64,000 nucleotides of DNA, taken from the sequence record NC_129898.1; one strand, 5' to 3'. The stretch comes from a phage. The translations under genes and the position numbers were made by a program. The notes beneath the pieces were generated by a model that worked only from the letters and a program-made list of their open reading frames with translations, searched no databases and was not told where the DNA came from. Of the stretch, positions 4,824-31,321 are shown one piece after another (within the stretch, counting starts at the first letter, position 1; the number at the start of each line of letters is the position of its first letter).

Positions 4824-5786
4824 TCAGCAACCACAACTTCCGTAGTGCTTAACCCGTTCTATAACCTCCGCTTGCTTACCTTTATTGTAAGGACGGGAGT
4901 TTGGACTGGACAGATACCCGGATACACGTCTAATCACACTGATCGTTCCCTCTTCATGGTTTCCACACTCTGGGCATACAAAGCCTTTAGCTGTTGCACT
5001 GAACTCACCAGAGAATCCACACTTAAGACATTTATCCACAGGCTGGTTAATACCAAAATACATAATGTGTTTATATCCGAAATCAACAAGAGCTTCCAAA
5101 GCATCTAAGTTGTTTTTCAGATTTGGTGTCTCTATGTACCCAATGTTGCCACCAGAGGAGATCATAGCAAAACCTTCCTCATACTTCCACTTATCAAAAG
5201 GCGAGCTATTGATCCATACTGGCTGATGGAAACTGTTGGTGAGGTATTCATGCTCGTGCTTCAACACTTCTGGGTATTCACGATCCAGACAGGTTGCAGC
5301 TTTATAGCATAAACTCTCAGAAGGTGTGCCGTACAAGCTAAATGCTAGTCCACTTTCCTTCTTGTATCGCTCACAAGCATCTTTCATGTGCTGAAGGATT
5401 CCAAGAGCTAAAGCCTTGTCACCCTCTCTGCCCAAAATCTGACAGGTTTCATACACACCAATATACCCAATACTGATGGAAGCGTACCCGTCATAGAAGA
5501 GTTTATCGATACTCTCTTCAGGATCCAGGCTAGCAAGAGCTCCTTCACACCACATGATAGGGTTATGCCCTGCCTTTGTTCCTTTTAGACGGTTAACTCT
5601 TACAAGGTGAGCCTCATATGCCAAATCCAAATATTCGTCAAGAACTGCAAAGAAATCAACACCTTCCGTTTTAGCTTTTGCCGCAATCATTGGTAGGTTA
5701 AGGCTAACAACACCCAAGTTGAATCTGCCAAGGTATTTCTCCTCGCCTGTTACAGGGTCGCTATATTTCGATAAGAAACTTCTACA
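4824..5786 (-). CDS. nrdD: anaerobic ribonucleotide reductase, exon 2 (C-terminal part)
   Basis: Begins 'CRSFLS'; C-terminal zinc ribbon CLKC...CPEC and glycyl-radical motif 'RVSGYL'; in frame with exon 1 after removing 5787-6548. Confidence 0.7.
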   Translation of the reverse strand, partial: CRSFLSKYSDPVTGEEKYLGRFNLGVVSLNLPMIAAKAKTEGVDFFAVLDEYLDLAYEAHLVRVNRLKGTKAGHNPIMWCEGALASLDPEESIDKLFYDGYASISIGYIGVYETCQILGREGDKALALGILQHMKDACERYKKESGLAFSLYGTPSESLCYKAATCLDREYPEVLKHEHEYLTNSFHQPVWINSSPFDKWKYEEGFAMISSGGNIGYIETPNLKNNLDALEALVDFGYKHIMYFGINQPVDKCLKCGFSGEFSATAKGFVCPECGNHEEGTISVIRRVSGYLSSPNSRPYNKGKQAEVIERVKHYGSCGC

Positions 5787-27731: not shown

Positions 27732-28082
27732 ATGAAAGAGGAGGATAAGCTGCCATACCTTAAAGTCCCATTTGGAATACTGTCTATGTCAAAAGTTTTG
27801 AATGATACAACTGGAGAGGTTGTTGTTCTTGACTTGTATGACAAGATCGTATACTGCTACCTGCACAACTGGTATAAGCTTGGAGGAAATTCACGCTTCA
27901 CACCCAGCACAAGGAAAATTGCAGCAGATGTTGGGATAAAGAAAACAAAAGCAGCAGCGTGCGTTAAAACTTTAGAATGTGCAGGAGTGGTTGAAATATC
28001 CACACAAGGGAGAGGTAAAAGATGCACATTTTCCAAAGTTTTGCCACCAGAAGAGGTTATTCGAATGTCAACAACTGGTTAG
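27732..28082 (+). CDS. putative winged-helix DNA-binding protein
   Basis: 'STRKIAADVGIKKTKAAACVKTLECAGVVEI' has an HTH-like pattern; immediately upstream of the iteron array. Confidence 0.45.
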   Translation: MKEEDKLPYLKVPFGILSMSKVLNDTTGEVVVLDLYDKIVYCYLHNWYKLGGNSRFTPSTRKIAADVGIKKTKAAACVKTLECAGVVEISTQGRGKRCTFSKVLPPEEVIRMSTTG

Positions 28083-28156
28083 ACCAGTAAAAACTTAAAT
28101 ATCTGTACTATAAGGATTCGTATGTTTTATGTCCATCCAAGAGCAGAGGGTAGTAA

Positions 28157-28238
28157 CTGTCCGTGATACGGACACTACTGTCCGTCACGCGGACACATCT
28201 GCCCGTAATACGGACACTAACTGTCCGCAATACGGACA
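28157..28238. repeat. four tandem 18-bp palindromic iterons (CTGTCCGT-NNN-ACGGACA)
   Basis: Copies at 28157-28174, 28178-28195, 28199-28216 and 28221-28238, spaced 21-22 bp start to start. Confidence 0.85.
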
Positions 28239-28380
28239 CATAAAGAATATAACTAAAATAACTAAATAATAAAAAAAAATAAAAGATCTAGTAATTATGG
28301 TACTAAAGTACATATACTTAACTTATGTAGAATATACTAGATCCTAAGTACCATGTTTTAAATTTATTACTTACTATTGG

Positions 28381-28705
28381 TAGTGTCGGCCCTTCATTGG
28401 CACTCGCCTACGAGGGGCGAGATGCCGGGCCTCCATAGTGCACACAATGACAGGAGTGCATACATGCAGGACTGTTAACATGTGTGGGAGCGAAGCTATA
28501 GCGCAGGCCAAAGGCCGAGCACTAATGTGGACCACCGACGAAAGCTTGCCAGCGCCGTAAGGAGTCGGTTGAGAGCCTCCCGCGCGAGTTTAGTTAAAGT
28601 TTATGTGTGGAAACGGACAGGAAGGCCCCTAAATCGCCACACAGCTGCGTAAACTATACCAAGTAAGGCAATCGCACCAGTTTGATAGAAAAGCTCGTTA
28701 CAAAG
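28381..28705 (+). ncRNA. candidate structured non-coding RNA, class unknown
   Basis: GC-rich ORF-free region with many local helices (GGCCC..GGGCC, CTCGCC/GGCGAG, GGCCaaaGGCC, CCGAC..GTCGG, TGTGTGG..CCACACA) and GNRA-like loops. Confidence 0.25.
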
Positions 28706-28746
28706 CGATACAGTGAGTTTTTCTATAACTTGAAGAGGAGGCAGTT

Positions 28747-29325
28747 ATGAGTTCACGCAAAGATGACCGCGAAAAGATTGCAAAACGTTATCAGAATGAA
28801 GAACAGATGGAGAAAACTTTCAAGTGGAAGCCAGGTTTCCAGCGTAATCATTCTAACGCTCGTGATCGTAAGCATCCGGATAAGTGGCTAACACCGCCAA
28901 ATGATGGCATGCAGGTTGGTGATGAGAAGGAGCTATCGCCTGGAAAAGATGGCAACTACATTCGCACTAAGGACGCTGGTCCAAAGGATGACAGCTATCT
29001 TGTAGATAAGGTTCTTGATGGTATTGATGTAGATGTTGACACCACACGGAACTTTTTTCTTGGGTGGTATCGCACAGGTTTTTTCGACATCAAGGCCATT
29101 CGTCGTGTTTGTGATATTAAAAAGTCTGCATATGATGACGACTCGTTACATCGCACCCTGAGGCAATATTCAGAAAGATATGGTCATCCGGTTATCACTC
29201 TTGACGATGTTGACGAAGTGATGTATCATGCAGAGGTTGTTGCAGGCAGATTTGGTGATGCATATCTTGATATCCTTTCTGCAAACGATGAGGTAATGTT
29301 GAATAAGATTTACTACGAACGTTGA
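28747..29325 (+). CDS. hypothetical protein
   Basis: 192-aa ORF with GAGGAGG RBS. Confidence 0.55.
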   Translation: MSSRKDDREKIAKRYQNEEQMEKTFKWKPGFQRNHSNARDRKHPDKWLTPPNDGMQVGDEKELSPGKDGNYIRTKDAGPKDDSYLVDKVLDGIDVDVDTTRNFFLGWYRTGFFDIKAIRRVCDIKKSAYDDDSLHRTLRQYSERYGHPVITLDDVDEVMYHAEVVAGRFGDAYLDILSANDEVMLNKIYYER

Positions 29326-29335
29326 GGAGAGCTTA

Positions 29336-29524
29336 ATGAACAATCCGGTAGCAAAGAACTGTAATAAGTTCAACAAGTCTGCAATTCACACTGACAGGAA
29401 AAAGAGCTGGTCACCGGACATTGACGAGGAGCTTGAGAATTACTTTGAAGATCTGGTTACCAATGCAGGTGAGGTTGCGATTAAAGAATACGCAGACAGG
29501 AGGGATAAGGCCGGAATCTGTTGA
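29336..29524 (+). CDS. hypothetical protein
   Basis: 62-aa ORF. Confidence 0.35.
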   Translation: MNNPVAKNCNKFNKSAIHTDRKKSWSPDIDEELENYFEDLVTNAGEVAIKEYADRRDKAGIC

Positions 29525-29549
29525 CAAAAATAATGTTACCTGATAAGAT
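29521..29549 (+). promoter_or_regulatory. sigma70-like promoter (TTGACA-17-TAAGAT)
   Basis: Consensus -35 with 17-nt spacer; a second extended -10 'TGATACAAT' lies at 29572-29580. Confidence 0.45.
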
Positions 29550-29600
29550 CTGCAATATGATGTGATACAATTTTAACTTACGAGGTCTACAGGTAATGCT

Positions 29601-29843
29601 ATGTTTAAGGTTAAGCTCGTTTTCCGTTCCATGAATGAGGATTATTTAGAAGATGAAGGTGAATTTCGTGCACTAGATGATGCAATAGATTTTGCCAACG
29701 ACTTAGCTTGTATGAACACGGGTTATGGGTTGTGTTGTTGGGACGGTGGTATTCAGATCGGTGATAGCAAAATCTTCTACTTCTACCCTGAGCCGGATAA
29801 CAAACAAATTAAGTATGTTTTATTTATTTGTGCTTTACAATGA
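29601..29843 (+). CDS. hypothetical protein
   Basis: 80-aa ORF. Confidence 0.4.
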   Translation: MFKVKLVFRSMNEDYLEDEGEFRALDDAIDFANDLACMNTGYGLCCWDGGIQIGDSKIFYFYPEPDNKQIKYVLFICALQ

Positions 29844-29844
29844 G

Positions 29845-30130
29845 GTTGTTTTCGTGTATCATGATGAATATCCAATTTAAAGATGAATTTGATGGCTTTA
29901 TCTCCGGATGCTTTGAAACAGGGTTCGGAGAATGCTGAGTTCCCATTAGAGGGCTTGATAGTGCACCACACTTAAAATGGTAGGGGCAGCCAGCACATGA
30001 CGATGTGACCCCAGCCAACCTGTAATAAGGTCGAGCCAAAGCGCGGTAATGGGTCTCTGGTAACCCACTTGTTGGGTCTTGTGGTCCAGGACGCTGGGCA
30101 AGTCGCAGGGAATACCACCCTGCGGCGAAC
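29845..30130 (+). ncRNA. candidate structured non-coding region, class unknown
   Basis: GC-rich; only overlapping multi-frame antisense ORFs; helices such as CGCAGGG-aatacca-CCCTGCG and GGGG..ACAT-gacg-ATGT..CCCC. Confidence 0.2.
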
Positions 30131-30159
30131 TTGACAATCAGTATTTGCCGTGATAAAAT
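30131..30159 (+). promoter_or_regulatory. sigma70 promoter (TTGACA-17-TAAAAT with TG extension)
   Basis: Near-consensus hexamers; the track ORF start at 30131 falls inside it, so the gene is started at 30188. Confidence 0.55.
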
Positions 30160-30187
30160 CCACCTATCACGTGATAATGGAGGAAAC

Positions 30188-30526
30188 ATGGCGGATACAA
30201 CTAAAAAGCGTCGCCGTAGAGGCAGACCTCTGAAAGAGGAGTCCAACGCCATTCAGCTAGAGAAGAACATTCTTGATATGAAGGAATCTTTTATAGCGAT
30301 GGTTCCAGAAGCTCACAAAGTTTTAAGAGAGCTGATGTTGGATCCGAAAACCAAGCAAAATATTCGTCAAAGCATTGCAGAGTATGTTCTTGATAAGGCA
30401 GACCGAATGCAGGAAGAATATGATGAGATGTTTGGTGAAGAGGAAGAGGTGGTAGTAGAAGAGGCTGAAAAACCAGCACCTTTTATGCCATTTACCACAG
30501 AAATACAGCCTGTTAGCAATAGCTAA
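30188..30526 (+). CDS. hypothetical protein with basic N-terminus (possibly DNA-binding)
   Basis: Started at MADTTKKRRRRGRP with GGAGG RBS; acidic C-terminus. Confidence 0.5.
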   Translation: MADTTKKRRRRGRPLKEESNAIQLEKNILDMKESFIAMVPEAHKVLRELMLDPKTKQNIRQSIAEYVLDKADRMQEEYDEMFGEEEEVVVEEAEKPAPFMPFTTEIQPVSNS

Positions 30527-30535
30527 AATATTTTC

Positions 30536-30564
30536 TTGACAAACTTTGCTTAACAGTGTAATAT
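30536..30564 (+). promoter_or_regulatory. sigma70 promoter (TTGACA-17-TAATAT) ahead of the tRNA cluster
   Basis: Consensus -35 and good -10 about 60 nt before the first tRNA. Confidence 0.5.
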
Positions 30565-30622
30565 TGTAAACATGGTCTCCCACCTTTTCTGGCGGCTAAG
30601 GTGTAAAAGAAAGCCACCCAGT

Positions 30623-30697
30623 GCCCTGTTAGCTTAGTGGATAAAGCAGCGGCCTTCTAAGCCGTTGACACTGGTTCGAGTCCAGTACGGGGTGCCA
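30623..30697 (+). tRNA. tRNA-Arg (anticodon TCT)
   Basis: Hand-folded cloverleaf: acceptor GCCCTGT/ACGGGGT, anticodon loop CTTCTAA, T-loop GGTTCGAGTCC, encoded CCA. Confidence 0.75.
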
Positions 30698-30827
30698 AGT
30701 TCTTTTTAATGTAGCTTACTTTAGCAGAGTAAATCTTCGGCAAGTGGCGGTAACCACTTTACCGATACCTCATAGTTAGTGGTGAGAACACTAGCTATTT
30801 TAAAAAGAATTTAAATATTAGTATTTA

Positions 30828-30915
30828 GGTGAGTTAATTCCGTAGGGGTAGCGGGGCAGACTGTAAATCTGTTATCATTGCGATTCGGGTGGTTCGACTC
30901 CATCACTCACCACCA
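30828..30915 (+). tRNA. tRNA-Tyr (anticodon GTA)
   Basis: Acceptor GGTGAGT/ACTCACC, anticodon arm CAGACTGTAAATCTG as in E. coli tRNA-Tyr, long variable arm, encoded CCA. Confidence 0.8.
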
Positions 30916-31218: not shown

Positions 31219-31315
31219 GCTAGGTAAGCCCTTTGGCAAGGGCGAGGATTTTTAATCCTGAAAATAGACGAGGTAGTCGTTGAATACATAGATGGTTCGA
31301 TTCCATCACCTAGCA
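31219..31315 (+). tRNA. tRNA-Lys-like (anticodon TTT) with atypically long variable region
   Basis: Acceptor GCTAGGT/ACCTAGC and anticodon arm GAGGA-TTTTTAA-TCCTG are canonical, but about 30 nt separate the anticodon stem from the T arm and CCA is not fully encoded. Confidence 0.4.
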
Positions 31316-31321
31316 CCTTTT

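Follow-up and report, generated by a model that had tools for sequence, protein, structure and literature searches.

The stretch of phage DNA considered here (64,000 nucleotides of the sequence record NC_129898.1; hereafter, the window) comes from a Vequintavirus, that is, an rV5-like coliphage, and over positions 29700-30300 it shares 97-99.8% identity with FV3, rV5 and some 150 further records. Our subject is an RNA element in the gap between genes at 29845-30130, which is bounded on its 5' side by the stop codon of rV5 ORF75 (29843) and on its 3' side by the sigma-70 promoter P74, followed by ORF74 and then by a cluster of transfer RNA (tRNA) genes starting at 30623, all of them on the plus strand. 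The rV5 reference record carries no annotation over the corresponding gap. An earlier reading made from the letters of the window (hereafter, the original prediction) had described a GC-rich, structured non-coding block ending at a near-consensus promoter, and both its composition and its boundary are borne out: the GC content is 0.52-0.535 across 29900-30199 as compared with 0.36-0.42 in the flanks, the first ~55 nucleotides (nt) of the gap (29845-29900) being AT-rich, and P74 (TTGACA-17-TAAAAT, plus strand, 30131-30159; annotated under this name in rV5) matches the consensus at 11 of 12 positions and has a TG extension. P74 serves ORF74 and the tRNA cluster and borders the element, lying outside the RNA fold. 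The accompanying statement that nothing other than overlapping antisense open reading frames (ORFs) covers the gap holds for the long ones (29824-30252, 29946-30137 and 29972-30163, all on the minus strand) but not for the short ones, as two small plus-strand ORFs occur at its 5' edge (29828-29938, 36 amino acids, annotated in some records; and 29883-29975, 30 amino acids).

Comparison among phages shows that the plus strand of the gap encodes a structured non-coding RNA with a core of 54 nt (30008-30061), which is the sole significant match of the family covariance model in the window (70.1 bits, E = 5e-21; the next-best match reaches 12.8 bits). The case for an RNA clearly stems from conservation and covariation and not from thermodynamics, given that the folding energy of the block is not exceptional (minimum free energy, MFE, z = -1.66 for the plus strand and -0.76 for the minus strand) and that of the core alone is no better than chance (z = 0.11). 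It is on these comparative grounds that the block can be regarded as non-coding and maintained as RNA structure, and the alignment that the original prediction had called for revealed an element conserved far beyond the rV5-like lineage; the region proved neither coding nor unconserved in relatives, and the ORFs called over it are inconsistent from one relative to the next.

Fold of the conserved core

Twenty-six diverse copies of the core were aligned on their invariant bases, so that the register cannot be fitted to the structure, and a later set comprised 41 distinct copies including divergent ones. Twenty-four of the 54 columns are invariant in the 26-copy alignment, and the copies conform to a three-way junction. 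Its outer helix, P1, joins the three bases that precede the P2 hairpin (GCC, 30014-30016) to the bases +3 to +5 after a GGUAA motif (GGU, 30052-30054); all three pairs change on both sides, with a covariation score that none of 500 shuffles reaches, 96% of the cells are paired in the 26 copies as against 16-54% in slid registers, and the two inner pairs are 95-98% paired in the 41 copies while displaying five and six dinucleotide types. The P2 hairpin (ACCU-GUAAUA-AGGU, 30018-30031) consists of 4 base pairs (bp) that are 100% paired in the 41 copies, A-U being replaced by G-C three times and by G.U once, and U-A by A-U once. Its loop follows the consensus G-U-R-N-N-A, with GUAAUA as the commonest form and GUAACA, GUAAAA, GUAGCA, GUGAAA and, in contig L035, AUAAUA as variants. 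The junction and the third helix, P3, occupy 30032-30051 and read CGA, GC (30035-30036), the loop CAAAGC, GC (30043-30044), GGUAA, U and G30051. P3 has 2 bp (G28-C37 and C29-G36, counted within the core) and is likewise 100% paired, with C-G replaced by U-A three times and by G-C once (L237).

Two other pairings were discarded. An initial guess for P3, CC/GG (columns 29-30 with 38-39), was dropped in favor of the present register because L204 and L240 change C30 and because L151, L179, the second L038 copy (L038b) and L237 covary at 29/36; the CCCAUUA/UAAUGGG pairing of the MFE fold is broken in rV5 without compensation. The most conserved parts of the core are the junction strands, C-N-A and GGUAA-N-G, which are nearly invariant (the G at +2 being strictly so), and the pattern of the P2 loop. 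The helices include G.U pairs, ten of them at the outer P1 pair, which indicates that the constraint acts on the plus-strand RNA and not on the DNA or on the opposite strand. A protein-coding test across the relatives yielded no consistent frame or strand, conservation showed no dependence on codon position, and the changes in the helices are compensatory.

A further hairpin, Pa, precedes P1 in every lineage, its sequence differing by lineage. In the window it spans 29983-30012, where GGGG (29983-29986) pairs with CCCC (30009-30012) below an internal loop, CAGCCAG (29987-29993), and an upper stem, CACAU/AUGUG, with a GACG loop (29994-30007); in the sister lineage within the Vequintavirinae represented by L034, which also carries the core, the upper stem is wholly replaced (CUACG/CGUAG for CACAU/AUGUG) and the GACG loop is kept. 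Pa is one of the two hairpins quoted in the original prediction, GGGG..CACAU-GACG-AUGUG..CCCC, the other being CGCAGGG-AAUACCA-CCCUGCG at 30104-30124 (H5). Both are indeed present in the sequence, and Pa belongs to the conserved fold; H5, in contrast, occurs in all rV5-like copies with variation in its loop only and is absent from the L034-like phages, so that its place in the conserved fold could not be upheld.

The core might also engage Pa through a pseudoknot. Its candidate 3' strand, CUGGU (30057-30061), is complementary to GCCAG (29989-29993) in the Pa internal loop, and elsewhere the 5' internal loop or the loop of Pa matches the tail in the same way through lineage-specific sequences (GUGAGGG/CCCUUAC in L034, CUCCGG/CCGGAG in phage Ivi, AAACCA/UGGUUU in L035 and AUAGCA/UGCUAU in KIL1). 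The complementarity was first spotted by eye and then tested by comparing each lineage's own tail with the tails of the others. The upstream region does pair better with its own tail, at p = 1e-4 to 2e-3 for 17 representatives and, for 14 independent lineages, at p = 0.02; within single sequences the pairing is no better than with shuffled tails. Taken together, these results are suggestive of a pseudoknot between the Pa internal loop and the tail that follows P1. RNAalifold also proposes an alternative helix that pairs the 3' strand of Pa with the tail, namely GACCC (30008-30012) with GGGUC (30051-30055).

Distribution and genomic setting

A sensitive BLAST search of 29880-30135 against 50,697 phage records matched the core in 984 of them, comprising 118 full-length rV5-like records and about 870 other phages that match through a stretch of 40-44 nt (30011-30054) at 85-95% identity, which lies in the denV-vs.8 spacer in T4-like phages. 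Further lineages emerged when viral and metagenomic contigs were scanned for the pattern and the matches were filtered with the covariance model. Matches of 28-75 bits were thereby obtained in the rV5-like and L034-like phages, in three subtypes of T4-like phages (the T4 copy lies at 64852-64905 of NC_000866.4, on the minus strand, with 70.5 bits), in BUCT541-like phages of ~46 kb that infect Klebsiella, Salmonella and E. coli, in the Pseudomonas syringae phages KIL1-5 and the P. putida phage pf16, in the 45-kb phage Ivi, in a 360-kb contig and in several unplaced contigs. Only the core is common between lineages, the flanks being unrelated, and a segment of ~45 nt within it is better conserved than the flanking sequence and the neighboring genes.

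None of 5,426 complete E. coli genomes contains the core, on which grounds host mimicry and a prophage origin were set aside, and a search for an exact 19-mer in the genomes of 185,579 species, one genome per species, returned two matches, both devoid of the rest of the core. The sole plasmid match, in PLSDB, is the 137.6-kb "E. coli plasmid" CP057073.1, which matches the element at 94.6% identity and is about as long as the genome of an rV5-like phage. We also observed that eighteen "Campylobacter phage" records (e.g., MG065644 and MG065690) are rV5-like coliphage sequences and may thus be mislabelled or contaminated. Some T4-like phages carry tandem copies ~60 nt apart, the second of which is divergent (28-41 bits), as in L038 (5089-5253), L041 (9018-9183) and L105; L028 has two copies (976-1029 and 1498-1553), and one Jiaodavirus has a copy before an internal-protein gene and another before vs.8. 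Looser patterns additionally retrieved L039, L043, L045, L048, L049 and GC-rich metagenome sequences, which are chance or coding matches and are rejected by the model.

The element is always oriented in the direction of local transcription, and about 10 of the 14 lineages have tRNA genes on its strand at a distance of no more than ~1 kb. Two tRNA genes enclose it in KIL1 and L077; it follows a tRNA gene by 36-42 nt in L110 and L151, and it precedes tRNA genes by 230-350 nt in the BUCT541-like group and the tRNA-Arg gene by 500-560 nt in the window and in the sister lineage. Since a random locus would come that close in only a few per cent of cases (phages of 100-170 kb, tRNA clusters of 1-2 kb), this proximity across lineages is not due to chance. 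Homing endonuclease genes are common near phage tRNA clusters.

What follows the element varies with the lineage: vs.8 or internal-protein genes in T4-like phages, ORF74 in the window, tRNA genes in KIL1 and in the BUCT541-like group represented by L030, and a terminator in pf16, L035 and Ivi. In the L034-like phages a strong, TG-extended promoter (TTGACA-16-TATACT, 11 of 12 positions) stands directly upstream of the element and the ORF74 promoter directly downstream. In pf16 the element sits between the stop codon of gp58 and an annotated rho-independent terminator, after which the next gene has its own annotated promoter, and in L035 the core is followed after 16 nt by a terminator of 11 bp, the distance from core to terminator in these two cases thus being 0-16 nt. 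In the BUCT541-like group an 8-bp helix, GUUGUGAC/GUCACAAC, closes the whole unit, and L077 has a compensatory GUGAA/UUCAC. In the same phages the element is bracketed by the repeat CCGTTGTGRYGAAA (positions 5231-5244 and 5423-5436 of L030, minus strand; also in L032, L033, L040 and L044), for which 0.02 occurrences would be expected by chance; this repeat recurs before neighboring units, its GUUGUGAC part pairs with the GUCACAAC that follows the element, and it could be a phage-specific promoter or processing signal.

T4-like phages have the element in the leader of vs.8 and some Jiaodavirus-like phages in that of an internal-protein gene. The 3' domain of T4-like copies (e.g., L005 4288-4360 and L004 2552-2600) contains hairpins with GGA in their loops, ACAUGGAUGA and GCCA-AGGAA-UGGC, which may resemble CsrA-type sites. 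In the Vequintavirinae, the element precedes ORF74 by 140-200 nt in all six viral contigs that encode a relative of this protein, and a link between the two that is specific to the Vequintavirinae is conceivable from this arrangement. We found no protein partner covarying with the element: KIL1 gp37, which like ORF74 has a GRP motif, was considered as a relative and rejected (BLASTP E = 4.2, different PHROGs), and ORF77 (28747-29325), considered as a vs.8 homologue, has no similarity to it. Pfam and PHROG searches with ORF74, ORF75, ORF77 and vs.8 gave no function, vs.8 having a weak match to a terminase nuclease region.

Existing gene calls collide with the element in several phages. The RefSeq coding sequence of T4 vs.8 (64253-64912 of NC_000866.4, corresponding to L234 4254-4913, minus strand) starts inside Pa and spans the whole element; in other T4-like records the vs.8 start is placed ~40-120 nt further downstream, and a conserved N-terminus, MRTFLTGP, is found ~120 nt downstream, so that the start of T4 vs.8 is probably over-extended. 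The "hypothetical protein" vB_PsyM_KIL1_0040 (L233 1029-1271, minus strand), which is called antisense over the element in the interval from tRNA-Met to tRNA-Arg, is likely to be a spurious call. If this is correct, annotation would have to be revised, with the T4 vs.8 start, KIL1_0040 and several rV5-like "hypothetical proteins" overlying an RNA gene.

Lineage-specific hairpins and neighboring features

Around the core, the predicted hairpins H1, H3, H4 and H5 are lineage-specific decorations, all on the plus strand. H1 (UCUCCGGAU...GUUCGGAGA, 29901-29931) is predicted in the MFE fold and is restricted to the rV5-like lineage, where L237 and L094 keep its pairing through G-C to G.U and U.G to U-A changes; the L034-like phages have their promoter in its place. 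H3 (ACCCA-CUUGU-UGGGU, 30063-30077) is dispensable, being deleted in L029 and L101, and its closing pair changes from A-U to U-A in L237. H4 (GUCCAG-GACG-CUGGGC, 30084-30099), a second hairpin with a GACG loop, reads GCUCAG/CUGAGC in L237, i.e., with two compensatory changes, and has a U.G to U-A change in rV5; the L034-like phages have GCUGG-GGACGGA-CCAGC at this position. On account of the structure-preserving changes that L237 displays in H1, H3 and H4, most of the 230 nt from 29901 to 30124 can be said to be kept as RNA structure. H5 was considered as an intrinsic terminator and rejected, as it has no U-tract and is followed by GCGAACUUGACA. GACG loops thus occur on both sides of the core, in Pa (29999-30002) and in H4 (30090-30093), and both loops persist in the sister lineage on stems of a different sequence; they may therefore form a pair of recognition sites peculiar to the Vequintavirinae. 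A conserved 5' block, CCCAUUAGAGGGCUUGAUAGUGCACCACAC (29942-29971, plus strand), which would form a CCC/GGG mini-hairpin, is common to the rV5-like and L034-like phages and near-identical in both amid diverged surroundings; its predicted pairs never vary.

A promoter-like site, TTTACA-17-TATCAT (29834-29862, plus strand, 10 of 12 positions), overlaps the end of ORF75 and is kept in rV5-like genomes, making it a possible origin of a dedicated transcript with a putative start at ~29870; the sister lineage has in its stead a stronger promoter, nearer to the element. Scanning of 28000-30700 revealed no terminator-like site on the plus strand, including the interval between the element and the ORF74 and tRNA genes.

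Other features of the neighborhood deserve a record of their own. The 21 nt at 29876-29896, AAAGATGAATTTGATGGCTTT, are identical in the window, in most rV5-like copies and in all L034-like phages amid diverged surroundings, with 1-2 substitutions in L017 and L237. In the L034-like phages (L034, L082, L065 and L081) this stretch corresponds to a micro-ORF, MKDEFDGF*, that is preceded by the Shine-Dalgarno sequence AAGGAAAG and ends just before the promoter of the RNA; in the window it lies inside an ORF of 25-36 amino acids (29828/29864-29938) that is annotated as bas48_0227 in phage CarlMeissner. Within the tRNA cluster, ARAGORN predicts at 31219-31317 a tRNA of 99 nt whose anticodon has four bases (atcc), and a weak Rfam tRNA match (39 bits) at 30828-30912 was missed by ARAGORN; the rV5 record has tRNA-Tyr at the corresponding position. 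Directly 3' of a gene for a helix-turn-helix-type regulator (27732-28082), 4-5 tandem units of the inverted repeat GTCCGT-N4-6-ACGGAC(AC) at 28150-28240 look like an operator array.

A second GC-rich block, at 28381-28705 (GC 0.575), had been joined to the present one in a single island of RNA or DNA structure. It is unannotated in rV5 and 90-99% conserved, in the 118 rV5-like genomes only; it has no Rfam match (the best, to rli43, scores 18.8 bits against a threshold of 100) and was rejected as a second copy of the element, with no covariance-model match and no similarity across lineages. The notion of one island is therefore left without comparative support.

Proposed role and its rivals

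We tentatively favor, among the explanations that the comparative data allow, a stable RNA that forms a module of its own and binds a conserved partner. This is the simplest reading of a core that occurs with its own promoter or terminator, within tRNA clusters, after genes and in unrelated leaders, and also in tandem copies. In such a scheme the RNA would be an early product of the host RNA polymerase, with the ORF75 promoter or the promoter-like site at 29834-29862 as its origin, and would work as a stable module made alongside the phage tRNAs, its invariant junction forming a pocket for a partner common to enterobacteria and pseudomonads (part of the translation or tRNA machinery, a factor involved in defence, or a small ligand), rather than as the regulator of one particular gene. 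The strong conservation across unrelated virulent phages, combined with the absence from bacterial genomes, suggests that this partner is fundamental and common to the hosts. A bolder variant, which we regard as rather improbable, is that the element is a decoy or "sponge" RNA made with the phage tRNAs, its junction capturing a component of host immunity, for instance a nuclease that targets tRNAs or a nucleotide second messenger, or else that it represents a new class of self-cleaving ribozymes; if either were true, T4, rV5, Klebsiella and Pseudomonas phages would have in common an ancient and hitherto unrecognized RNA tool.

Several observations weigh against a self-contained module. Every T4-like copy resides in a protein-gene leader and is followed by a conserved 3' domain that stops 10-25 nt short of the start codon, as would befit a role in cis; the terminator placed right after the element in pf16 and L035 would equally suit the expression platform of a riboswitch; neither the window nor T4 offers an obvious 3' end for a discrete small RNA; the pseudoknot is moderately supported and is not clear in T4 type B, pf16, L036 and L046; and the alternative helix modelled between Pa and the tail hints at conformational switching. 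The leader position with its 3' domain near the Shine-Dalgarno sequence, the closely spaced terminators and the alternative pairing are also the arguments for a riboswitch-like leader in which the three-way junction would be a metabolite or signal aptamer, or a protein-binding operator, controlling downstream genes (ORF74 and the tRNA operon in the window, vs.8 in T4), to which one may add that the element is always upstream of ORF74 in the Vequintavirinae and that an invariant junction, a three-way junction with a pseudoknot and tandem copies are typical of aptamers. We nevertheless deem such a leader unlikely, because what lies downstream has no common function from one lineage to the next (vs.8, internal proteins, ORF74, tRNAs or nothing), a strong promoter separates the element from ORF74 in the window and in the L034-like phages, the next gene of pf16 has an annotated promoter of its own after the terminator, no anti-terminator or anti-Shine-Dalgarno pairing conserved across lineages was found, and no Rfam riboswitch matches. 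A new small self-cleaving ribozyme, or a structure recognized by a ribonuclease, that separates tRNA precursors from mRNAs in polycistronic early transcripts is a still more doubtful proposition, even though it would agree with the compact, pseudoknotted fold of 80-110 nt, with ~20 invariant junction nucleotides and strict strand specificity, with the tandem copies, and with positions between or beside tRNAs, in mRNA leaders and after genes, where processing would help; phages are a reservoir of small ribozymes. Against it stand the lack of any Rfam ribozyme match at E <= 10 in four lineages and of a cleavage site that could be deduced.

The self-contained RNA must also be set against two readings that dispense with RNA function, both of which we consider very improbable. 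A DNA-level element, be it a target of a homing endonuclease, a recently transferred mobile fragment or, as the original prediction had suggested, a packaging or recognition site for the basic protein encoded by ORF74, could draw on the near-identity of a 32-nt core between unrelated phages, which might betray recent horizontal transfer, on the homing endonuclease genes near phage tRNA clusters and on the constant adjacency of ORF74 in the Vequintavirinae. The suggestion of an ORF74 site founders on the presence of the core in T4-like, Klebsiella and Pseudomonas phages, beside whose copies no ORF74 relative was found, and DNA-level explanations at large are at odds with the unrelatedness of everything outside the core, with an orientation that always follows transcription and with compensatory changes that preserve intramolecular helices, in which the frequent G.U pairs would correspond to C.A mismatches in the complementary strand. 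Least credible of all is that the region codes for protein or is a functionless GC-rich spacer with chance hairpins: while its folding energy is ordinary and ORFs have been called over it (the extended vs.8 of T4, the antisense KIL1_0040, and bas48_0227), these calls differ in frame, strand and extent between relatives, 24 columns are invariant regardless of codon position, helix substitutions are compensatory, and the model scores 28-75 bits in unrelated phages as opposed to 12.8 bits for the next-best match in the window.

If the favored reading is correct, T4 and several hundred phages of the therapeutic type that infect E. coli, Klebsiella, Salmonella, Shigella, Yersinia and Pseudomonas carry an unrecognized structured RNA. 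Its position beside tRNA genes bears on the role of phage tRNA islands and of their companion RNAs (GOLLD, ROOL and T4 species 1 and 2), and its presence in T4 makes this question approachable by T4 genetics.

The element among known RNAs

The Rfam scan that had been proposed for the block gave no family over the element. Of the 4,227 covariance models in Rfam 15, those reaching their gathering threshold in the window are tRNAs only, nothing falls on the element at E <= 10 over 28000-30700, and the copies from L030 (BUCT541-like), KIL1 and T4-like phages yield noise of 9-20 bits against thresholds of 29-100. The absence of Rfam matches in four lineages excludes, at the sensitivity of E <= 10, the curated riboswitches, ribozymes, GOLLD, ROOL and tRNA-like families, and this includes hammerhead, twister, twister-sister, pistol, hatchet and hepatitis delta virus-like ribozymes. 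ARAGORN calls six tRNAs in the window, none of them at 29845-30130, and elsewhere its calls flank the element and never overlap it. Among the papers covered by keyword and exact-sequence searches, none contains the core sequence or describes an RNA at this T4 locus, and a RegB/denV paper proved to have no bearing on the element, which could be one of the 8,495 unnamed candidate phage RNAs in a 2023 catalogue. Since the conclusive tests for membership of known classes were negative, apart from the tRNA-island setting that it has in common with GOLLD and ROOL, we regard the element as a new RNA family.

As regards architecture, the near-invariant junction, the covarying helices, the tandem copies and the occasional positions in 5' leaders or before terminators are reminiscent of three-way-junction riboswitches such as those for purines and thiamine pyrophosphate, and an aptamer-like, covarying junction that might bind a ligand is present; candidate expression platforms comprise the terminator after the core in pf16, L035 and Ivi, the close Shine-Dalgarno sequence in T4-like phages and the one alternative helix. 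The element differs from these riboswitches in the lack of an Rfam match, in helices that are far shorter (4 bp in P2 and 2 bp in P3) and in downstream genes that share no function. With twister, pistol, hatchet and hammerhead ribozymes it has in common the size, the compact pseudoknotted fold, the invariant junction, the occurrence in phages and the tandem copies, but it has no covariance-model match to them and no evident cleavage site. The GUAAUA loop of P2 presumably has the sequence of the hexaloop of 23S rRNA helix 44 (GTPase-associated center, nt 1093-1098), and the G-U-R-N-N-A pattern would be compatible with a loop folded like GNRA, two of its bases being extruded; in contrast to helix 44, three of the six loop positions vary and the helices of the surrounding junction come in a different order from those of the rRNA domain.

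The classical precedent for small stable phage RNAs of unknown function within a tRNA cluster is provided by T4 species 1 and 2 (rnaC and rnaD), which are co-processed with the tRNAs. The element is distinct from both, the model scoring at most 4.2 bits anywhere in T4 68000-75000, which includes the two genes, and the T4 copy lies ~6 kb away from them, between denV and vs.8. GOLLD and ROOL, which are large, ornate RNAs of phages and prophages, are structured, pseudoknotted and non-coding, of unknown function, and have been described as RNAs that are "often near tRNA islands" (PMC12286853). Like them, the element is phage-borne and stands beside tRNA genes of the same strand in most lineages; unlike them, it occurs in virulent gammaproteobacterial phages and not in prophages, and it is much shorter, with a core of 54 nt that extends to ~80-110 nt when Pa is included and to ~230 nt when the lineage-specific hairpins are, in a gap of only ~290 nt, as compared with ~500-800 nt or more. 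By analogy, then, its nearest counterparts would be GOLLD, ROOL and T4 species 1 and 2 in terms of genomic context, and small three-way-junction aptamers and pseudoknotted ribozymes in terms of architecture.

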